Positions 6,452 to 52,407 of a stretch of DNA of 64,000 nt are shown one piece after another. Source of the stretch: Acidimicrobiia bacterium (GTDB lineage Bacteria; Actinomycetota; Acidimicrobiia; Acidimicrobiales; CADCSY01); contig JBFWQW010000002.1 of NCBI GenBank assembly GCA_050249235.1, positions 7,936 to 71,935 on the forward strand, written 5' to 3'. A program made the position numbers and the translations under genes. Numbering within the stretch: the stretch's first letter is position 1; each line of letters opens with the position of its first letter. The notes under the pieces were generated by a model. That model searched no databases, was not told where the DNA came from, and saw only the letters and a program-made list of their open reading frames with translations.

Positions 6452-7726
6452 TCAGAGCGTCTCGGCCCCGCCGAGGTAGGGGGCGAGGGCGGCCGGCACC
6501 GCCACCAGGCCGTCGGGCCGGCGGTGGGTCTCCACCAGGGCGGCCCACACCCGGGGCCAGGCCAGCGCCGAGCCGTTGAGCGTGTGGAGGATCTCCGTGC
6601 CCCTGGCGTCGTTCGAGCGGTACCGGGCGTTGCCCCGGCGGCCCTGGTAGTCGCCGCACCAGGACACCGACGACACCTCGAGCCACTGGTCGCAGCCCGG
6701 GGCGTACACCTCGAGGTCGAAGGTCCGCCTGGCCCAGAAGCCGAGGTCGCCGGTGCACAGGTCGAGCACGCGGTAGGTGAACCCGAGCGCCTGGAGGAGG
6801 GCCTCGGCCCGGCCCAGCATCTCGGCGTGGAGGTCGTCGGCCTGGGCCGGGGTGCACCATGCCATCAGCTCGACCTTGTCGAACTCGTGGGAACGCAGGA
6901 GCCCCCGCGTGTCGCGGCCGGCCGCGCCCGCCTCCCGGCGGAAGCAGGGGGTGTAGGCGGTGTAGCGCCGGGGCAGCTCGTCCTCGGTGAGCACCTCGTC
7001 GCGGTGCATGGAGGTGAGCGGCACCTCGGCGGTCGGGATGGCCCACAGGTCGTCGCGCTCGAGGTGGTAGGCGTCGTCGGCGAACTTCGGGAGGTGCCCC
7101 GTCGACGTGAGGGTCTCGGTGCGGACCATGGTCGGCGGCCGGATCTCCTCCCACGCGTCGGCGTGGGCGTCGAGGGCGAGCTGCGTGAGCGCCCGGAGGA
7201 GCCGGGCGCCCCCGCCCCGGTACATCACGAACATCGAGCCGGACATCCGGACGGCCCGCTCGGGATCGAGCCAGCCCCGGGCCGCTCCGACCTCCCAGTG
7301 CGGCACCCGCTGGTGGTCGGCCCAGGCCCGGTCGGCGCCGACCGTGCGGACCACCGGGTTGTCGTCGGGACCGGCCCCGTCGGGCGCGGCCGGGGAGGGG
7401 AGGTTGGGGATGCCGAGCAGCACCTGGCGGAGCTCGCCGGCCAGGCGGCCGGCCTCGCCGTCGGCCAGGGCCTGGCGGTCGCCGAGAGAGCGGCTCTCGG
7501 CGGCAAGGCGATCGGCGGCGTCGGTGTCCCCGTCCCGCCGGGCCCGGCCGACCTCGGCCGACAGCCGCTTCACCTCGGACCGGAGCCGCTCGGCCTCGGC
7601 CAACGCGGCCCGGTGGGCTCGGTCGATGCGGACCGCCTCGTCCACCTCGGCCAGGTCGATGCGGCGCCGGGCCAGGGCGGCCTTGACCGCGTCCGGATCG
7701 TCACGGAGCAGCTTGACGTCGAGCAC
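6452..7726 (-). CDS. serS: Seryl-tRNA synthetase
   Basis: This is the C-terminal 425 codons of track ORF 6452-8845, starting at GTG (VLDVKLLRDDPDAVKAAL). It has an N-terminal coiled-coil arm and class II motifs (FRREAGAAGRDTRGLLRSHEFDKVE, GSALAWPRVWAALVE). Confidence 0.9.
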   Translation of the reverse strand: MLDVKLLRDDPDAVKAALARRRIDLAEVDEAVRIDRAHRAALAEAERLRSEVKRLSAEVGRARRDGDTDAADRLAAESRSLGDRQALADGEAGRLAGELRQVLLGIPNLPSPAAPDGAGPDDNPVVRTVGADRAWADHQRVPHWEVGAARGWLDPERAVRMSGSMFVMYRGGGARLLRALTQLALDAHADAWEEIRPPTMVRTETLTSTGHLPKFADDAYHLERDDLWAIPTAEVPLTSMHRDEVLTEDELPRRYTAYTPCFRREAGAAGRDTRGLLRSHEFDKVELMAWCTPAQADDLHAEMLGRAEALLQALGFTYRVLDLCTGDLGFWARRTFDLEVYAPGCDQWLEVSSVSWCGDYQGRRGNARYRSNDARGTEILHTLNGSALAWPRVWAALVETHRRPDGLVAVPAALAPYLGGAETL

Positions 7727-7844
7727 CGGGCGACCGTAGCGGCCGGCCCTCCCCGAGCCGGACGACTTGGAGCTCGGAGGGCGTCGCGCCTTGCTCGGCG
7801 CAGGAGCCGATCGAGCGCGACGTGACCGTGCCGCGGGCCATCGG

Positions 7845-7967
7845 AGGGTGCGCCGACAGGCGCACCCTGTGGCCCGAGCGGCCCGGCGCCGGAGGCGCCG
7901 AGAGAGGAGAACGCAGCGCCTTCTCGGCGACGAAGGAGCCGAGAACCAGAACGGACGTGACCTGTCC
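7845..7967. repeat. Structured intergenic repeat element, locus A (hairpin plus about two 44-bp-type units)
   Basis: A perfect hairpin AGGGTGCGCC-GACA-GGCGCACCCT (7845-7868) comes first. The unit at 7871-7914 matches the 44-bp unit at 51060 in 40 of 44 positions. A degenerate second unit and a GGACGTGACC right end follow. The 18-mer AGGGTGCGCCGACAGGCG is identical to 51036-51053. Confidence 0.75.
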
Positions 7968-7977
7968 GCGCGGACTC

Positions 7978-8877
7978 TCAGGGCTCCATCGGCGCCGGTC
8001 CGGCTTCGGCGAGCTCGCGCTCGACCTGGGCCCAGGTGAGCTCCGGCGAGCGCCGGTCGAGCGCGATGCCCCGGTCGCGGTCGTCGGCCTGCGACTGGTT
8101 CGCGAAGCGGATGAACAGGGAGGCGATGATCACCCACAGGTAGGTGCCGGCCAGGAGCTTCATCATCGTGGCCGCCAGCTGCTGGTCCTCGAGCGCGGTG
8201 AGGCCCCAGATCCGCCCGACCCGGTCGTAGGACTCGTAGGCCACGTGCTCGGCGAACACGAGGATCCCGGCCGGCACGGTCGGCACGACCGACTGGAGGA
8301 AGAGGTGGGCGGCCTGCACGAGCAGGGAGAAGCGCAGCTCGGGCAGGGGCGAGCACACCCCCATCCACACGATCAGGCCGGTGGTGACGACGAGCAGGTG
8401 CACTCCGTAGTGGGCGAAGGGGTTCGTCACCGACGCCTCCACCACCAGGGGCCAGTGGCTGAACACCACGACGGCGTTGAAGAGGATCGTCGCCGGCACC
8501 AGCCGGGTGAGCCACCGCACGACCCGGTAGCCGCGCCCGTCCCCCACCACCATCCGGGCCAGCCAGGTCGGTGTGGCGAGCAGCGCCATCGGCGGCACGA
8601 CCAGCGAGAGCAGGAGGTGCTGGGCCATGTGGGCGCTGTAGAGGTGCTCCTCGGCGATGTCGTGCACGGGCCAGTCCGACGCCACCCACAAGGTGACGAT
8701 GGTGGCCACGAACCAGCGGAGCTGGGCCGGGGTGACCACCGGCTCGCCCTCGAGGGTCGCCGACGGCCCGATGCGGCGGACGGCGTAGGCGTAGAGGCCG
8801 ATCAGGCCGAGGAGGAGCGCCCAGACCTCGGGGTGCGGCTGCCACCGCCAGACGTCGACGGCGGCGACCACGGCCAC
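7978..8877 (-). CDS. ctaG: Cytochrome c oxidase assembly factor CtaG (caa3 type, membrane)
   Basis: A 299-aa polytopic protein with a HMAQHLLLSLVVPPMALLATP motif. It is the last gene of the cta operon. Confidence 0.8.
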   Translation of the reverse strand: MAVVAAVDVWRWQPHPEVWALLLGLIGLYAYAVRRIGPSATLEGEPVVTPAQLRWFVATIVTLWVASDWPVHDIAEEHLYSAHMAQHLLLSLVVPPMALLATPTWLARMVVGDGRGYRVVRWLTRLVPATILFNAVVVFSHWPLVVEASVTNPFAHYGVHLLVVTTGLIVWMGVCSPLPELRFSLLVQAAHLFLQSVVPTVPAGILVFAEHVAYESYDRVGRIWGLTALEDQQLAATMMKLLAGTYLWVIIASLFIRFANQSQADDRDRGIALDRRSPELTWAQVERELAEAGPAPMEP

Positions 8878-29607: not shown

Positions 29608-30018
29608 ATGGCACCTCGGAAGAAGCGCATCGTCACCGACGAGCACAAGGCGGCAATGGCGGAGGGACGCACCCAATCGCGGGCGGTTTCGTCCTATCTC
29701 GAGGCCCTCGAGCTGCACCGTCCGAAGCGGGGCCGGAAGCGCACGACCGACTCCATCGACAAGCGCCTCAGCGCCATCGACGCCGAGCTCCCGACGGCCA
29801 ACCCGATCAAGCGGCTTTCGTTGATCCAGGAGCGGCTCGACCTCGTCAACGAGCGCGAGACCCTCGGCACGAGCGTCGACATCAGCTCGTTCGAGGACGA
29901 GTTCGTCGCCGCCGCCGGTCCCTACAGCCAGCGAAAGGGCATCAGCTACGCCGCCTGGCGTGAGCTCGGCGTGCCCCCGGCCACCCTCAAGCGGGCCGGC
30001 ATCACCCGCGCCATGTAA
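29608..30018 (+). CDS. Hypothetical basic protein (136 aa) inserted in the pur cluster
   Basis: ATG 29608. The product is MAPRKKRIVTDEHKAAMAEGRTQSRAVSSYLEAL...GISYAAWRELGVPPATLKRAGITRAM. It has a Lys/Arg-rich N-terminal half and ends with TAA. It is the only plus-strand gene between purL and purQ. Confidence 0.6.
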   Translation: MAPRKKRIVTDEHKAAMAEGRTQSRAVSSYLEALELHRPKRGRKRTTDSIDKRLSAIDAELPTANPIKRLSLIQERLDLVNERETLGTSVDISSFEDEFVAAAGPYSQRKGISYAAWRELGVPPATLKRAGITRAM

Positions 30019-30019
30019 C

Positions 30020-30255
30020 TGCGCAGCTCCGCTTCGCTTCGCAGCTGGGCGTGCGACGCAGCCGAACCCTTCTGAGCAGCTGCTCCGGCTGGCGCCTGCG
30101 CAGCCTCGGCAGCGCTTCGCTTCGCAGCTGGGCGTGCGACGCAGCCGAACCCTTCTGAGCAGCTGCTCCGGCTGGCTGTGCTGATGCGCAGCTCCGCTTC
30201 GCTTCGCAGCTGGGCGTGCGACGCAGCCGAACCCTTCTGAGCAGCTGCTGCTCCG
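30020..30255. repeat. Tandem repeat, three copies of a 77-88 bp unit
   Basis: An identical 63-nt core GCTTCGCTTCGCAGCTGGGCGTGCGACGCAGCCGAACCCTTCTGAGCAGCTGCTCCGGCTGGC occurs at 30031-30093 and 30114-30176. The third copy, from 30196, is identical for 54 nt. The array fills the convergent spacer before the purQ stop. Confidence 0.9.
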
Positions 30256-30266
30256 CGGGTCGGGGT

Positions 30267-30932
30267 TCAGCTGGCGGCTTCGAGGAGGCTGCGGAGGAGG
30301 GGGATGCCGTCCTCCGAGCCGAGGAGCGGGTGGCTGGCCCGCTCCGGGTGGGGCATGAGGCCCACGACGTTCCGACCTTCGTTGCAGATGCCGGCGATGT
30401 CGTCGATCGAGCCGTTGGGGTTGTCCACGTAGCGGAAGATCACCCGATCGTCGGCTCGGAGCTCGGCCAACGTCTCGGGTCCGCACGTGTAGTTGCCCTC
30501 GAAGTGGTTGATCGGGATCCGGAGGAGCGATCCCTTCCCGGCCTTCGAGCTCAGCACGCTGTCGGTCGACTCGACCCGGAGCGTGGTGGTGGTGCACAGG
30601 AACTTCAGGCCCCGGTTCTTCTGCAGCGCCCCGGGCAGCAGACCGGCCTCGGTGAGCACCTGGAACCCGTTGCAGATGCCGACCACAGGCCCGCCCGAGG
30701 CCGCGAAGTCGGCCACCGCCGTCATCACCGGTGAGAAGCGGGCGATGGCGCCGGGCCGGAGGTAGTCGCCGTGGGCGAAGCCGCCGGGCACGATCACCGC
30801 GTCGTTGGGGCCGACGGTCCCGTCGCCGTGCCAGAGCAGCTCGGCCGTGCCCCCGAGCGACTCGACCGCCTCGATGGCGTCGCGCTCGCAGTTCGACCCG
30901 GGGAAGAGCACCACCCCCACGCGGGCCGTCAC
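30267..30932 (-). CDS. purQ: Phosphoribosylformylglycinamidine synthase glutaminase subunit PurQ
   Basis: GTG 30932 (VTARVGVVLFPGSNCERD). It has the nucleophile GICNGFQ and GLMPHPER. There is a GTGA overlap with purS. Confidence 0.9.
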   Translation of the reverse strand: MTARVGVVLFPGSNCERDAIEAVESLGGTAELLWHGDGTVGPNDAVIVPGGFAHGDYLRPGAIARFSPVMTAVADFAASGGPVVGICNGFQVLTEAGLLPGALQKNRGLKFLCTTTTLRVESTDSVLSSKAGKGSLLRIPINHFEGNYTCGPETLAELRADDRVIFRYVDNPNGSIDDIAGICNEGRNVVGLMPHPERASHPLLGSEDGIPLLRSLLEAAS

Positions 30933-39657: not shown

Positions 39658-39705
39658 GGTGCTCTCCTTGCCGACGAGGTCGGTCGGATCACGGGGTCGG
39701 TGGGC

Positions 39706-39771
39706 TCAGGGGATCGGGCGGGGTCAGGGATCGGGCGGCGTCAGGGAATCGGGCGGGGTCAGGGCCGCCGG
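39706..39771. repeat. 17/18-bp tandem repeat (3.5 units) in the hspR-clpB spacer
   Basis: The units are TCAGGGGATCGGGCGGGG, TCAGGGATCGGGCGGCG and TCAGGGAATCGGGCGGGG, followed by TCAGGGCCGCCGG. The last TCA is the hspR stop codon on the minus strand. Confidence 0.8.
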
Positions 39772-47351: not shown

Positions 47352-49157
47352 TCAGCGCCGGCGGTTGGTGGCGTCGAGGACGGCCCGGGCCACAGCGTCG
47401 AGCCGGTTGCCCCCGCGGACCGGCGCCGAGCCGGTGACCATGTCGTCGACCGAACCCGCCGCGACGACGACCCCGACCACGGCCACCTCGCCCCCGGCCG
47501 ACGACAGCACGTCGGCGAACTCGACCCCGAGGCCGGGCCCGCCGCCATCCCCGAGGGCGTCGAGGCCCCGGGCGGTGGCCTCGGCGACCAGGCGCTGGGT
47601 GCCCGCCCGCGACGCCATCCCCTCCGCCCGACCGGTGACGATCCGGTGCCCGTGGCGCAGCTCGACCTCGACGGAGAAGGTCGACCCCTCCTGGGCGGCC
47701 GTGACCCTGGCGAGCACCGGCCGGAGCCCGGCGGTGGGCGGCGCCGAGGCGACCGGCGGGGCCGGCTCCGGCTGGGCTGGTGGCGCCGAGGCGACCGGCT
47801 GGGCTGGTGGCGCCGAGGCGGCCGGCGGGGCTGACGGCGCCGAGGCGGCCGGCGGGGCCGGTGGCTCGGGCGGGAGGGTCCGGGCCGCCTCGGCCGGGGC
47901 CCCCGGGCGCAGGACGCGGGTCTCGGCCGTCGAGCCGAGCGGCATGACCCGGAGGTCGACCACCTCGGGCACGGCCCCGGCCACCGCCTGGATCCGGTCG
48001 AGGATGGCCTCGGGCAGCTGCTCGGTGTCCGTGGCCGGGCGGACCAGCACGCCGACGTGCAGGCGGCCGGTCTCGTCGCTCACCCGGGCCGCCAGCACGT
48101 CGGGGAGCTCGTACAGACGCTCCTCGATCTCGCGCTCGGGCCAGGCCATCGAGGCGATCCTACGAACGGGCCCGGTCGGCGCCGGGGAGCCCCCGGCCGT
48201 CGGCTCGGAGCCCTCGCCGTCCGGTCCACCGTCCATCGCCGCCACGTCGGTCGCACCGGTTCGAGGCCGCACCGAGCGTCCGGGGTCGCCGCCCCGGGTG
48301 CGGCGGCGCTGGTCGAGGAGCTGCTGGTCGGCGGCGTCGACGAGCTGCTCGAGCCCGAGGCCGTCGTCCGGGAAGCCGGCCACGCCGTAGCTGAAGGACG
48401 GGGCCTGGCCGATGGTCCGGTCGAGCAGCGGCCCCACGTCGGCGGGCCGTGTCTCGGGGAGCACGAGCACGAACTCGTCGCCGCCGACGCGGTACACGGC
48501 GTCACCGGACCGGAGGTGGCGGCTGACGGCGGTCGCCAGGCGGCGGATGGCGTCGTCGCCGGCGGCGTGGCCCTCGGAGTCGTTCACCCGCTTGAGGCCG
48601 TCCATGTCGATCACGATCACGCTGAGCGGGCGGCCGTGGCGCTGGGCCGTGGCCAGCAGCGGCGAGGTGTCGCGGTCGAGCGCCCGCCGGTTGCCGACGC
48701 CGGTCAGCGGGTCGAGGAAGGCCGCCGCCTCGAGCCGGCGGAAGGCCCGCTCGCTGACGGCGACGAGCAGGACGTCGACCAGCCGCCCGAGCACCTCGAG
48801 GGCCGGCATGGCGTCGGCGGGGTCGAGCTCGGCCAGGAGGTGGCGGTGCAGGATCTCCCGGAAGGCCGCCATCTGCTCGACCGACACGGCCGCCTCGTGG
48901 TCGAAGTCGAGTGGCGAGCGAAGGACCGCCACCGCCTCGGCCGACCCGGGGTCGGCCAGCCGGAGCGCGTCGGCGACCGCGGCCACGAACGAGCGGGCCA
49001 CCGAGGGCGCCGGGGGCGAGCCGGGGCAGGTCTCGGCGCAGCGCTCCCGCCACGCCGCGGCGAGGGTGGGCGTGTCCCGGCTCAGCACCTCGGCGGCCCG
49101 GTCCGGACCGGTCACGGCCGGCGCCGGGCGGGGAGGCGGGTCGAGGGTCCCGTGCAC
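47352..49157 (-). CDS. GGDEF-domain protein with a Pro/Ala repeat linker and an unassigned C-terminal region
   Basis: The GGDEF core is DPLTGVGNRRAL...RVGGDEFVL. It is followed by about 330 aa with no motif I recognise and a PA-rich repeat. The GTG 49157 start is uncertain. Confidence 0.75.
   Translation of the reverse strand: MHGTLDPPPRPAPAVTGPDRAAEVLSRDTPTLAAAWRERCAETCPGSPPAPSVARSFVAAVADALRLADPGSAEAVAVLRSPLDFDHEAAVSVEQMAAFREILHRHLLAELDPADAMPALEVLGRLVDVLLVAVSERAFRRLEAAAFLDPLTGVGNRRALDRDTSPLLATAQRHGRPLSVIVIDMDGLKRVNDSEGHAAGDDAIRRLATAVSRHLRSGDAVYRVGGDEFVLVLPETRPADVGPLLDRTIGQAPSFSYGVAGFPDDGLGLEQLVDAADQQLLDQRRRTRGGDPGRSVRPRTGATDVAAMDGGPDGEGSEPTAGGSPAPTGPVRRIASMAWPEREIEERLYELPDVLAARVSDETGRLHVGVLVRPATDTEQLPEAILDRIQAVAGAVPEVVDLRVMPLGSTAETRVLRPGAPAEAARTLPPEPPAPPAASAPSAPPAASAPPAQPVASAPPAQPEPAPPVASAPPTAGLRPVLARVTAAQEGSTFSVEVELRHGHRIVTGRAEGMASRAGTQRLVAEATARGLDALGDGGGPGLGVEFADVLSSAGGEVAVVGVVVAAGSVDDMVTGSAPVRGGNRLDAVARAVLDATNRRR
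47740..47862. repeat. In-frame 27-bp tandem repeat (about 4 units) inside the GGDEF gene
   Basis: The unit GGCGCCGAGGCG(A/G)CCGGC(G/T)GGGC... recurs four times, and the first unit carries a 15-nt insertion. It encodes SAPPAQPVA / SAPPAASAP-type units on the minus strand. Confidence 0.8.
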
Positions 49158-49717: not shown

Positions 49718-50349
49718 GCACGGGCGATGGCTTGGGGCCGGTTCCTGGCCCCGAGCTTGCGGAAGAGGCGGCTCTGGAGGTTCTGCACCGTCTTCGGGGT
49801 GATCCCGAGCCCGACCGCCGTCTCCCGAGCCGTCTCGCCCTGCTCGATCGAGCGGAGGATCTCGGTCTCCCGGCGAGTGAGGGTCGGCGCTGCGTCGGCG
49901 GCCACCTTCCCGGCTCGGAGCCGGTCGACCACGAGGCGGGCCTGGCCGGCCACGAGGAAGGGGTTGCCGATGCCGACGACGCGGACGGCGGCGAGGAGCC
50001 GCTCGACCTCGACGCCGGCGTGGAGCACGGCGTCGGCCCCCCCCACCAGCAGCTGCATCGTCCGGTCGTCGGAGGGCGGGCCGTCGAGCATCACCACGAT
50101 CCGGGCGTCGAGGGACTGCGCGCCGCGCCAGTCCTCGGGGGTGGGCTCGACGAGGACGGCGACGACGATGGGCGGGCCGGCGTCGTCGGGCAGCGCCTCG
50201 AGGCGGACGAGGTCGACGACGTCGAGGCCTCCGGTTCGCAGCAGGATCTCGACCGCCTCCCGCTCCACTCCGGCCCGGCCGAGCACGACGACCGCGGCCG
50301 GCACGGCCGGCGCCCCGGCCGGGCTCCCTCCCGTCGAGACGTCGGTCAT
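49681..50349 (-). CDS. LuxR-family regulator with a degenerate receiver-like domain
   Basis: The C-terminal HTH is LTRRETEILRSIEQGETARETAVGLGITPKTVQNLQSRLFRKLGA. The N-terminal domain is receiver-like but lacks the DD pair, the phospho-Asp and the Lys. Confidence 0.75.
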   Translation of the reverse strand: MTDVSTGGSPAGAPAVPAAVVVLGRAGVEREAVEILLRTGGLDVVDLVRLEALPDDAGPPIVVAVLVEPTPEDWRGAQSLDARIVVMLDGPPSDDRTMQLLVGGADAVLHAGVEVERLLAAVRVVGIGNPFLVAGQARLVVDRLRAGKVAADAAPTLTRRETEILRSIEQGETARETAVGLGITPKTVQNLQSRLFRKLGARNRPQAIARAYELGLVEGSVR

Positions 50350-50951
50350 GCGGCTCCGAGCACCCCGATCCGGTGGGCCACGGCGACGGCGTGGGCCCGG
50401 CCCCGGGCCCCGAGCTTGTCGAGGATGCGGCGCTGGACGAGCTCGACGGTCCGCAGGCTGACGCCGAGCTCGGCGGCGGTCTGCTCCGACGTCTCCCCCG
50501 CGGCCATGCGCCGCAGCACGTCGCGCTCGCGCTCGCCGAGGAGGGCGCGGGTGGGCAGCTTGCGGCGCTCGGGCTCGGCCGCGGGAGGCAGCGGGAGGAG
50601 CCGACCGCGCATGGCCGCCCGCAGGCCGACGCCGCCGGCGCCGTAGGACACCAGGACGACGCCGAGCTCCTCGGCCGTCGCCTCGTGGTCGGCCCGGCGA
50701 CCGCGGTGCAGGGCGAGGACCCGGCAGCGGGGATGGGCCTCGGCCAGCCGGGCCACCAGGCCGGCCAGCTCCCAGCCCTGGGGCTCGAGCTCGACGAGCA
50801 GGAGCTCGCCCCGGTGGAGGCCCACCAGCGCGAGGGCCTCCTCGCCGTCGGCGGCTACCCCGACCACCTCGATGCCCCGGCGCTCCTCGGCGAGGAGCCG
50901 GGCGATCCCCACCCGGACCAGCCGGCGGCCTTCCTGCACGATCACCCGCAC
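50346..50951 (-). CDS. LuxR-family regulator with a degenerate receiver-like domain
   Basis: GTG 50951 with a GAGGTGA RBS. MRVIVQEGRRLVR replaces the canonical DD pair with QE, and LLLVELE places Glu where the phospho-Asp should be. The HTH is LGERERDVLRRMAAGETSEQTAAELGVSLRTVELVQRRILDKLGA. There is an ATGA overlap with the downstream paralogue. Confidence 0.8.
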   Translation of the reverse strand: MRVIVQEGRRLVRVGIARLLAEERRGIEVVGVAADGEEALALVGLHRGELLLVELEPQGWELAGLVARLAEAHPRCRVLALHRGRRADHEATAEELGVVLVSYGAGGVGLRAAMRGRLLPLPPAAEPERRKLPTRALLGERERDVLRRMAAGETSEQTAAELGVSLRTVELVQRRILDKLGARGRAHAVAVAHRIGVLGAA

Positions 50952-51059
50952 GAGGTCACCTCACTGGAGGCAGTCGCAGGTCGCGGTGCGCGGTCGGCGG
51001 GGCACCCCGCCATCATGACCCAGAGGCGGGCCGAGAGGGTGCGCCGACAGGCGGTCCGG

Positions 51060-51229
51060 GGCCCGAGCGGCCCGGCGCCGAAGGCGCCCAGAGCGGAGAA
51101 CACGGCCCGAGCGGCCCGGCGCCGAAGGCGCCCAGAGCGGAGAACACGGCCCGAGCGGCCCGGCGCCGAAGGCGCCCAGAGCGGAGAACACGGCCCGAGC
51201 GGCCCGGCGCCGAAGGCGCCCAGAGCGGA
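51060..51229. repeat. Perfect 44-bp tandem array, 3.9 copies (structured intergenic repeat element, locus B)
   Basis: The unit GGCCCGAGCGGCCCGGCGCCGAAGGCGCCCAGAGCGGAGAACAC occurs at 51060, 51104 and 51148 in full and at 51192 for 38 nt, with no mismatches. Each unit contains GGCGCC-GAA-GGCGCC. The period is not a multiple of 3. Confidence 0.95.
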
Positions 51230-51249
51230 TGTGACCGATCCTGGCGCCT

Positions 51250-52407
51250 CTACGAGTCGGGCGTCGAGGGACCGGGCTCGGGCGTCCACGCCGCCGTGGA
51301 CGGGGTCCACGCCGGGGGCGCGCCTTGCGCAGCCGAGCCCTCGTCGGCGGGCGCCGGGGGAGCCGGCGCTTCAGCGGCGCCGAGCGAGTCGAGGCTGCGC
51401 CGGAGCTCCTGGGACGCCTCGACCAGCTGGACCCGCAGCGACTCCTGGAGCTGGAGCAGCGACGAGAGCTGGGTCTCGGCCTCCGAGCGGATGGTGCTGG
51501 CGTGCTGCTCGGCCTCCTCGCGGGCGCCGGCGACCTTGGCCGCGGCCTCCTCGTCGGCGAGGCGGAGGCGCTCGGCGGCCCGGCGCTCGAGCTCGTCGAC
51601 CTCCTCGCGGCGCCGCGTCAGGTCGGCCAGGGCCTCGGACTGCGTGAGCTCGACCTCTTCACGCGCCTTGCGGCGCTCCTCCTCGGCGGCGTCGTGGCTG
51701 GCCCGCAGCACCCAGGCCACGTGCTCACCCAGCTCGGCGAACCGGTCGGCGGCCGGGGCACCCCCGCCGCCGCCGGCCTGGGCCGCCCCCCGCGCCGCCT
51801 CGAGCTCCTCGAGGGTCGCCCGGTAGCTCGTCGCCGCGGCGTGCAGGACGGCGGCGAGGCGTTCCCGGGTCTGGCCCTCGAGGCCCTCCAGGAGGTCGTC
51901 CCGCTCCAGCGCCTCGGGTGCGATCCGGAACTGGTGCTCGTACATCGACACGGTCGATCCTTCCGTCTCACGTTCGGGGGGCGTCTCGGGTTCGGGGTCT
52001 TCGGTGCTCGGTCGCTGGTCCCGGTCGTCGACGGCGGGGGGCGCCACGGGATCGCTTGATCCGGGGGGCGGTCCCGTCGCCACGGCGAACGGTTCGAGTA
52101 CTCCGTATCGACGCCGACCGGCGGCCGAGTTGAGGCCGAATCCGACCACGAGGGCGCCGGCCCCGGCGATCGCCAGGCCGGCGACGTCGCCCCCCGTGAC
52201 GGGAAGGCCCGTGCCGACCGGTCCGGTGCGGTCGGGGACGAGGCCCGGCCCGGGCGGGGATGGCGTCGACGTCGGGGGGGTCTGGGGACCGGGCTCGGTG
52301 GGCGGTGATCCCGGCGGATAGCTCTCGGCCGCGCCTGCCGATGCGGCCCCCTCGAGCAGCAGCGGAATCGTCAACGACAGCGCCAGGGCCGTCTTCTTGC
52401 GCTTCAC
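51250..52407 (-). CDS. Secreted/membrane protein with an internal LPXTG-like sorting signal and a C-terminal coiled-coil domain
   Basis: GTG 52407 with a GAGGAGG RBS. The order is a signal peptide (MKRKKTALALSLTIPLLLEGAASAGA), a Pro-rich stretch, LPVTGG plus a hydrophobic helix plus RRR at aa 68-100, and then about 285 further residues rich in E/A/R heptad-like sequence. Confidence 0.6.
   Translation of the reverse strand: MKRKKTALALSLTIPLLLEGAASAGAAESYPPGSPPTEPGPQTPPTSTPSPPGPGLVPDRTGPVGTGLPVTGGDVAGLAIAGAGALVVGFGLNSAAGRRRYGVLEPFAVATGPPPGSSDPVAPPAVDDRDQRPSTEDPEPETPPERETEGSTVSMYEHQFRIAPEALERDDLLEGLEGQTRERLAAVLHAAATSYRATLEELEAARGAAQAGGGGGAPAADRFAELGEHVAWVLRASHDAAEEERRKAREEVELTQSEALADLTRRREEVDELERRAAERLRLADEEAAAKVAGAREEAEQHASTIRSEAETQLSSLLQLQESLRVQLVEASQELRRSLDSLGAAEAPAPPAPADEGSAAQGAPPAWTPSTAAWTPEPGPSTPDS

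Follow-up and report, generated by a model that had tools for sequence, protein, structure and literature searches.

Two loci in a 64,000-nucleotide stretch of DNA from an Acidimicrobiia bacterium (GenBank assembly GCA_050249235.1, contig JBFWQW010000002.1, positions 7,936 to 71,935 of the forward strand; this whole stretch is called the window) are probably copies of a family of small interspersed repeats, non-coding and non-autonomous, that occurs in Acidimicrobiia, is apparently undescribed and is mobile now or was mobile once. One copy lies in the spacer between ctaG and serS near 7 kb, and the other lies near 51 kb. Acidimicrobiia are abundant, mostly uncultured actinobacteria of soil, freshwater and marine environments. 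The repeat is modular, with a left module A, a conserved core (module B) and, in a minority of copies, a right module C, and it occurs in the form of singlets, imperfect inverted doublets with terminal inverted repeats of about 20 nt, and tandem arrays.

Copies in the window and in other Acidimicrobiia

The two window copies share the 18-mer AGGGTGCGCCGACAGGCG, which is exact at 7845-7862 and at 51036-51053, and positions 7871-7914 equal the 44-bp unit of the 51-kb array at 40 of 44 positions, including an identical 21-mer. The 29-mer GGCCCGAGCGGCCCGGCGCCGRAGGCGCC (with one R) has five occurrences, one at 7871 and the other four in the 51-kb array, and none in shuffled sequences. A degenerate second unit follows in the ctaG-serS spacer (7925-7944, 85% identical to the core hairpin at 7884-7903), the similar right ends ACGGACGTGACCTGTCC and GCGGATGTGACCGATCC are both present, and the left end of the 7-kb copy forms a perfect 10-bp hairpin (7845-7854 with 7859-7868, 100% complementary), the 3' arm of which is degraded at 51 kb. 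Apart from the 29-mer and the placing of the second unit, these features had been described in a first-pass annotation made from the sequence alone, which also placed both elements correctly between the stop of one minus-strand gene and the start of the next, in the same orientation. It located the spacer element rightly but drew its boundaries (7845-7967) too narrowly: the repeat spans 7776-7980 and takes up 80% of the 251-nt spacer. Only these two loci, and no further copies, were found in the window.

The ctaG-serS copy has the layout C'-A-B-C, or about 1.4 units of an imperfect inverted doublet. Its extra module C' was recognized by local alignment of 7776-7835 with 7906-7970 (score 55; shuffles 22.5 +/- 4.4, maximum 41) and by the direct repeats 7776-7792/7906-7922 (76%) and 7819-7848/7954-7983 (70%). 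The outer ends are inverted repeats, 7837-7860 versus 7961-7984 (71% complementary over 24 nt), the latter segment being the inverted-repeat partner of module A, and the left arm (module A and core) resembles the reverse complement of the right arm with z = 4.8. Read on the gene strand, this copy starts exactly at the ctaG stop, as TGA-GAG-TCCGCGCGGACAGG. The 51-kb copy consists of a degraded A, 3.9 units of B and the distal part of C only, starting at the TAG of the upstream open reading frame (ORF), and the same A-B-distal-C layout is found in locus L027. The four cores of the 51-kb array recur in an independent assembly (L120), and we infer the array to be an expansion of the variable-number tandem repeat (VNTR) type. 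A Logan short-read contig (L119) ends, at its position 1, inside the 44-bp array, and thus the repeat breaks short-read assemblies.

Further members of the family were sought with the exact 24-mer GAGCGGCCCGGCGCCGNAGGCGCC, using one genome per species. The first-pass annotation had proposed a dispersed family on the strength of two loci and had suggested a genome-wide search for copies; the 24-mer was present in at least 116 stretches from at least 61 species-level Acidimicrobiia assemblies, the opposite of an absence of further copies. Among the matches listed, up to 10 loci were counted per assembly. These copy numbers are lower bounds, and all genomes of the family are metagenome-assembled genomes (MAGs). 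All matches listed belong to Acidimicrobiia and none to Mycobacterium. The source MAGs are labelled Acidimicrobiia, Acidimicrobiales, Microthrixaceae, Iamia, unclassified Actinomycetota or "uncultured bacterium". Seven loci with a type II repeat (L017, L026, L043, L052, L066, L077, L095) come from MAGs labelled Bifidobacterium breve or Bifidobacteriaceae; these contigs are probably misbinned or mislabelled Acidimicrobiia, because their G+C content of 68-72% is far above that of Bifidobacterium.

The family shares a sharply bounded 43-nt core, CG[G/T]GGCCC-GAGCGGCCCGGCGCCGNAGGCGCC-RRGAGCGG[G/A]aa. Since all loci were recruited by exact match, conservation inside the 24-mer is a matter of ascertainment; core positions left free by the search show 91-99% conservation in 130 copies, and the edges are sharp, which argues for homology and not convergence. 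At the loop position N, all four bases are seen, and a profile search of the collected loci added 37 non-exact cores. Singlets (98, versus 21 doublets) are the best conserved form, and the arrays have periods of 44, 56, 59, 74, 87, 90 and 91/92 nt. Module C was also identified in L003, L013, L014, L035, L075, L085, L090 and L112. Module A is somewhat more alike within one genome (0.73) than between genomes (0.68, p = 0.017), with no clear sign of recent bursts.

The first-pass annotation had called the element structured and had suggested a test for conserved secondary structure. Covariation is significant in two parts of the repeat. Hairpin 2 of the core, GGCGCC-GNA-GGCGCC, keeps its G.A-closed loop in variants with the stems GGCGGC/GCCGCC, GGCCC/GGGCC, GGTGC/GCACC, GGCGC/GCGCC and GGCC/GGCC, and in the variant cores three of its six pairs change on both sides (13 cells; 0 of 500 shuffles). 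In type I module A, compared across 39 family members, seven of nine pairs do so (37 cells; 0 of 500 shuffles), examples being GGCC-GA-GCC/GGC-GA-GGCC, GGGTGCGCC/GGCGCACCC, GGCTGCGCC/GGCGCAGCC and GCCTGCGCC/GGCGCAGGC, and the pairing collapses when the partners are slid against each other. Hairpin 1, GGCC[CGAGC]GGCC, hardly varies: one A-U pair is compensatory, and two pairs are G.U. In about 30 loci, module A is replaced by a type II left module, which consists of (A)TGAGCGAGCG, a hairpin with a UAYC loop and GCAGCGAGCGG, and a short variant, GGCCCGAGCGGCC-GTGG-GAGCGGGAA, lacks hairpin 2. Three hairpins of the repeat covary in all, with loops of the G..A type. RNAfold energies of the plus and minus strands across the family do not single out a functional strand, and both strands of the ctaG-serS copy fold equally well (z = -3.7 and -3.8). 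A long-range CCCG/CGGG pairing around hairpin 2 was considered and rejected, as it shows no covariation: position +32 is G or A, and its proposed partner stays C. In the orthologous spacers of L012 and L052, a second hairpin was observed just 3' of the core (gagaggggtcgcac..gtgcgatccctctc versus gggagcgagcgcac..gctcgctctc), which apparently differs between the two by compensatory changes.

Gene context and insertion sites

Genes outside the window were called with a simple GC3-based caller, which reproduces the public calls for the window. Most short forms stand downstream of a gene with the same direction (52 loci versus 13, p = 1e-6), and units start with TGAG at a gene's stop codon. In 36 of 59 loci, the upstream stop precedes the core by 19-25 nt or by 36-44 nt, two narrow distance classes in which it coincides with the terminal T[GA]A-G of the unit; it is TGA in 45 of the 59. 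The tabulation of orientation and gene position suggested in the first-pass annotation thus gave a family-wide rule, by which a unit begins at the stop of the upstream gene, and the orientation shared by both window loci reflects this rule. At the other end, about 20 loci have the start codon of the next gene 1-4 nt past the core, with AGGAG/GAGCGGGAA in front of it. The junction of core and start is almost always [A/G]TGA, and many units end in ..GCA, which together with the following TG recreates ATGA.

A start codon overlaps the left stop in 11 loci. The resulting mini-ORF ends exactly in the ATGA/GTGA of the downstream start in eight of them and reads in frame into the downstream gene in three, the third frame being used in none; the two window copies carry no mini-ORF. 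Five tandem 59-nt units were observed upstream of a gene at L131 (120-400), a locus recruited independently by CtaG homology. Each of these units is a 20-codon mini-ORF (MSERSERGPSGPAVGQERLT) with its TGA overlapping the next ATG, and hairpin 2 is shortened there to GGCC-GTA-GGCC. Long forms often lie between two stop codons, with the C end abutting the stop of an opposite-strand gene, as in the window, and fill the whole gap between convergent stops in L001, L021, L090 and L112. Clustering of the 797 called genes showed only common metabolic paralogues as neighbors, with no gene-specific association and no recurrent transposase-like neighbor among them.

The first-pass annotation had described the element as intergenic, which holds for the intergenic copies but not for the family as a whole, as ORFs run through the repeat in at least eight unrelated proteins. 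The hosts are CtaG, a class-III aminotransferase (ArgD-like, in four MAGs with the copy at one and the same position), an AMP-binding acyl-CoA synthetase, PGM/PMM, an FrhB-like protein whose 4Fe-4S domain is split, a NIR_SIR reductase, an AlkZ-like glycosylase and shikimate kinase, and Pfam matches flank or span the insertions. All eight copies are in the sense orientation, though stop codons are missing from both strands of the core. Frames 0, 1 and 2 are all used, and therefore no single peptide is selected; a conserved core-encoded peptide was rejected on this ground and because the 44-nt period is not a multiple of three. The ctaG gene of L010 has a 90-nt in-frame insertion for which the window's own ctaG is the empty allele, the two proteins being of the same length there once the insertion is removed.

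Empty sites were sought among 80 metagenomic loci with CtaG relatives of 45-68% identity. The order ctaG-serS is kept in four relatives with repeat-free spacers of 97, 48, 28 and 105 nt, all shorter than the 251 nt of the window, which indicates that the repeat was inserted and is not ancestral sequence. In the closest of these relatives (L121, 1115-1213), the spacer holds an unrelated perfect long inverted repeat instead (CCGTTCTTTGGCGACTTGCCC...GGGCAAGTCGCCAAAGAACG), which makes hairpins behind ctaG look like a general feature. Three further pairs of loci differ in the presence of the repeat. The flanks of L032 (filled) and L010 (empty) have about 80% nucleotide identity by eye and are too diverged for exact junctions, and base-level alignment of L051 with L012 and of L064 with L047 is poor and gives no exact junctions either.

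Direct repeats of at least 14 nt flank 16 of 113 loci, and most of these are a partial next unit; such 1.x units with a fixed TGAG start were found in at least 12 loci. Duplications of host DNA flank four copies and measure 42 nt (L050, adk-map), 27 nt (L102), 15 nt (L059) and 8 nt (L010), and long forms have flanks that resemble each other more than permuted pairs do (p = 0.0024). The variable length of the duplications rules out a simple transposase with a fixed stagger. A fixed 3-bp TNA duplication, as in an IS5/IS1031-like element, was likewise rejected. In L050 (reverse strand, core at reverse-strand index 4836), the repeat was observed to follow codon 14 of the old map gene, and the 42-nt 5' end of map is duplicated downstream, the duplication beginning at the second base of the old GTG. 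There the final A of the repeat and the duplicated TG form a new ATG, which is followed by an intact Map ORF of 248 amino acids.

Possible origin and role, and comparable known elements

The comparative patterns described above suggest mobility. Copies would spread, or would once have spread, within genomes by copy-and-paste, and the surviving insertions would be those harmless to genes in compact, operon-rich genomes. Each unit could supply or preserve a stop codon through its TGAG start and would bring a block of stable hairpins; sense-oriented units would also add the ribosome-binding-like tail AGGAG/GAGCGGGAA, and their final ..GCA with the following TG could restore a start codon. The window copies belong to a module-C-bearing subfamily and are read with the C end first, opposite in strand to the reference orientation of the core, and their mRNAs would gain GC-rich hairpins right after the stop, three at the 7-kb locus and about nine at the 51-kb locus. 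As far as sequence can tell, these copies most likely act passively as an RNA hairpin cluster, either as a barrier to 3'-exonucleases or as a terminator without a U-tract, separating ctaG from serS at the 7-kb locus and the 385-aa ORF from the regulator gene at the 51-kb locus.

Several observations weigh against a mobile repeat, or limit how far it can be traced. No transposase, RAYT or reverse transcriptase was seen, nor any autonomous relative, in the 8-kb pieces of MAGs examined. The closest ctaG relative is 68% identical, so there is no base-level empty site for the window insertion. The center of the repeat, and not its termini, is most conserved, which is unusual for a transposase-driven transposable element of the miniature inverted-repeat type (MITE), and near-invariance of 43 nt across a class suggests a constraint imposed by the host or by a trans-acting factor, with the reservation that conservation within the 24-mer follows from recruitment by exact match. 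All genomes are MAGs, which give neither firm per-genome copy numbers nor orientation relative to replication. No consensus intrinsic terminator, that is, a GC-rich hairpin with a U-tract, was found in 7600-8100 on either strand, which counts against the putative terminator or stabilizer role.

In place of a mobile repeat, the core could be a host-functional cis-element, an RNA or DNA signal read by the ribosome or by some protein conserved in Acidimicrobiia, such as a cassette of stop, hairpins, Shine-Dalgarno sequence and start that may serve mRNA processing, stability or coupling, or a site for a nucleoid or replication protein. We regard this as possible but not favored. Across at least 61 species, unpaired core bases are conserved to 91-99%, in contrast to the freely covarying stem of hairpin 2; the sense bias (52 versus 13, and all eight in-ORF copies), the start at a fixed 1-4 nt past the core behind AGGAG/GAGCGGGAA and the orthologous copies (L012/L052 and the argD copies) that keep the core while the adjoining spacer diverges all fit a signal, the last comparison being biased in that both members were recruited by the exact 24-mer. 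A signal is harder to reconcile with neighboring genes that have nothing in common, with copies in every context, including eight unrelated proteins in three frames, and with close relatives lacking the repeat at the same sites. The differing array periods and the 1.x-unit remnants resemble the dynamics of repeats and not a tuned signal, and both window copies are antisense to the proposed cassette. Conservation of unpaired bases and the sense-strand bias are nevertheless unexplained by pure selfishness, and a host-factor or RNA function and a REPIN-RAYT-like association remain as candidates. A further reading, put forward tentatively, is that the core is the recognition site of a conserved trans-acting factor within a class-wide, vertically persistent partnership of host and element in Actinomycetota; the unit would then be a portable, sense-oriented cassette of stop, hairpins, ribosome-binding site and start that rewires translational coupling in operons and is inserted non-canonically, at genes or within them, with one fixed end and variable duplications of 8-42 nt, maybe via single-stranded DNA or RNA.

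The other alternatives concern the means of spread. A REP/REPIN-type element, whose single-stranded DNA hairpins would be copied by a single-copy Y1 transposase (RAYT, IS200/IS605-like), with the long form as the mobile inverted doublet and the short forms as singlets, is unlikely. Transposition of the IS200/IS605 type leaves no target duplication, which stands against the duplications of 8-42 nt found here. Hairpins with G..A-closed GNA/GNNA loops, especially stable in DNA as in the d(GCGAAGC) mini-hairpin, would suit such an element, as would the coexistence of singlets and imperfect inverted doublets, and the lack of a recurrent transposase neighbor is expected with one RAYT per genome. Direct tandem arrays are common, however, singlets outnumber doublets and are better conserved, and CGTGG or CGGGG stands in place of a GTAG-type 5' tetranucleotide. 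No RAYT was seen in the 8-kb pieces of MAGs. Lineage-wide persistence fits REPIN-RAYT systems as outlined in bioRxiv 10.1101/2021.07.10.451892.

It is also improbable that the repeat is a MITE moved in trans by a DDE transposase with variable duplications, for example one like that of IS1634 or IS1549, in which case the ends of the parent insertion sequence would match GAGG..GCCGATAGG. The long forms do have terminal inverted repeats of about 20-24 nt beginning with GAG (as at 7837-7860 and 7961-7984), but inverted termini are missing from the short forms, the more numerous class, and the center is better conserved than the ends. No related insertion sequence was found, the collections searched being those of plasmids and viral contigs. 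For duplications of variable length, we know of no precedent other than IS1549 and IS1634. Direct repeats of 8-514 bp are described for IS1549 (Mycobacterium smegmatis) and IS1634 (PMC2266710), in keeping with the 8-42 nt of host DNA here, whereas the typical duplication of the IS1634 family is a 5-6 bp AT-rich tract (PMC2266710). Spread with no dedicated enzyme, either by replication template switching or microhomology repair where hairpins stall forks or by reverse transcription of an RNA intermediate, would account for one fixed end (TGAG) and one variable end, for the 1.x units, for duplications that differ in length between copies, for junction microhomology such as CGCA in L050 and for the orientation specific to the sense strand. 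Such processes rarely yield dozens of copies per genome with a class-wide invariant core, no reverse transcriptase was seen in the 8-kb pieces, and the case is purely inferential, which makes this origin quite improbable. The finding of only two loci in the window would also agree with coincidence, with one local duplication event or with an array of the CRISPR kind, and yet more than 100 loci in at least 61 species, the lack of matches in shuffles and array units that are identical and without spacers reduce this to a negligible prospect; a CRISPR array was rejected outright, as the 44-bp units are contiguous.

At the Rfam 15 gathering threshold, the window and 18 repeat-bearing loci gave tRNAs only, and an E-value search of 7700-8000 gave noise only. 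Viral contigs and PLSDB plasmids had no match to the repeat, and the literature searched contains no description of it or of any Acidimicrobiia repeat family. The first-pass annotation, which did not recognize the element, is supported in this, as it is in the REP/MIRU-like behavior it proposed, given the dispersed copies, the covarying hairpins, the tandem numbers varying between loci and the MIRU-style mini-ORFs. By analogy, the repeat would work most like MIRU and is also close to REP/REPIN, BOX and RPE, yet it cannot be filed under any of these or under MITE, and no sequence homology with MIRU or BOX is to be expected. As far as the summary of Supply et al. 1997 in PMC3184786 goes, MIRU are likewise actinobacterial, with units of 40-100 bp that are often tandem, variable in copy number and intercistronic in operons, with small ORFs overlapping the flanking stop and start codons (here in 8 of 11 loci and in the L131 array) and with filled and empty sites, the filled ones having short direct repeats. 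The host of MIRU is of another class, however, and nothing points to a relationship in sequence. Neither strong covarying hairpins nor a near-invariant 43-nt core define MIRU, whose duplications are tetranucleotides in contrast to the 8-42 nt here. Inverted doublets, in-frame coding insertions and, in the window, copies without a mini-ORF set the present repeat further apart.

With the REP/BIME/REPIN-RAYT elements of Proteobacteria, the repeat shares short GC-rich palindromes in many mostly extragenic copies (eight lie in genes), hairpins at gene ends, singlets and inverted doublets, mosaic modules, long persistence in a lineage and a plausible role as stabilizers of mRNA 3' ends. It differs from them in its target duplications, measured at 8, 15, 27 and 42 nt, in the frequency of direct tandem arrays, in the orientation bias toward the sense strand and in a core conserved class-wide, whereas REP sequences are species-specific; again, no RAYT was seen in the 8-kb pieces. 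Imperfect inverted doublets make up about 21 of 119 loci, and most loci are singlets or direct arrays. BOX elements of Streptococcus pneumoniae (boxA-boxB(n)-boxC) have the same modular A-B(n)-C plan, a middle module of about 45 bp in tandem and partly complementary outer modules, and they are co-transcribed with neighboring genes, some with ORFs (PMC3184786). Their sequence and host are unrelated, most copies of the present repeat lack module C, and its middle module is the conserved one. Rickettsia palindromic elements (RPE) and the Betaproteobacterial repeat element (BRE) are also in-frame, non-destructive palindromic insertions in unrelated genes (PMC3184786), but here three frames are used, no peptide is conserved and most copies are intergenic. 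SPRITE and similar terminator-like repeats resemble the long forms that fill gaps between convergent stops and differ in that the present repeat has no U-tract and also occupies 5' and intercistronic positions. Of MITE features, terminal inverted repeats occur in the long forms (71% over 24 nt in the window; z up to 4.8) and not in the short forms, and the duplications are of no fixed length.

The family thus unites MIRU-style mini-ORFs, REP/REPIN hairpins and doublets, BOX modules and RPE in-frame insertions, traits otherwise mostly found in separate classic elements, to which a class-wide conserved core and variable-length target duplications are added as two oddities. In practice, it breaks short-read assemblies and gives rise to VNTR markers. 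It also lengthens essential enzymes by peptide segments, and gene callers will be misled by it at starts and stops. A protein partner of the core, if there is one, would offer a handle on an unknown system of mobilization or RNA processing.

Features of the window loci

The gene assignments in the window (Table 1) agree with public gene calls on identical contigs of two NCBI assemblies.

Table 1. Repeat modules and adjoining genes at the two window loci
Feature	Coordinates	Strand	Description
serS	6452-7726	-	Start 49 nt past repeat-derived DNA; Pfam Seryl_tRNA_N match from residue 1
Module C'	7776-7835	+	Extra degenerate right-hand module, from local alignment and direct repeats
Module A	7843-7868	+	Left terminal inverted repeat: GGAGGG, then perfect hairpin AGGGTGCGCC-GACA-GGCGCACCCT
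Module B	7868-7910	+	Conserved 43-nt core; the earlier-described 44-bp unit is 7871-7914
Hairpin 1	7871-7883		GGCC[CGAGC]GGCC, in the core
Hairpin 2	7885-7899		GGCGCC-GGA-GGCGCC, in the core; core tail GAGAGAGGAG
Module C	7915-7980	+	Diverged inverted copy of A plus hairpin
Hairpin 3	7921-7945		In module C; GAA loop
Distal module C			GGACGTGACCTGTCCGCGCGGACTCTCA, with right inverted repeat 7961-7980; gene strand TGA(ctaG stop)GAGTCCGCGCGGACAGG
ctaG (Caa3_CtaG)	7978-8877	-	Stop codon is the outermost triplet of the repeat
GerE/LuxR-type regulator	50346-50951	-	Downstream of the 51-kb copy
Module A, 51-kb copy	51034-51059	+	Same 18-mer; 3' arm of hairpin degraded
Tandem array, 51-kb copy	51060-51229	+	3.9 perfect 44-bp core units (100% matches, score 340)
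Distal module C, 51-kb copy	51226-51252	+	Distal part only, GCGGATGTGACCGATCCTGGCGCCT, then CTA, the TAG stop of the upstream minus-strand ORF
385-aa ORF	51250-52407	-	No Pfam domain; stop codon abuts the 51-kb copy

The product of the 385-aa ORF has an apparent signal peptide, a Pro-rich stretch, LPVTGG, a hydrophobic segment and RRR and resembles a small sortase substrate, to which a coiled-coil-like C-terminal part is joined within a single ORF. The start of this ORF is uncertain, as the GC3-based caller prefers 51951. Three other tandem repeats were observed in the window: an unrelated one with an 83-bp unit at 30022-30249 (2.8 copies, 89% matches), which fills the gap between two convergent candidate ORFs (TAA at 30018, TCA at 30267), one with a 27-bp unit at 47768-47865 (3.6 copies, 90% matches) and one with 17/18-bp units at 39674-39764 (3.2-3.6 copies).

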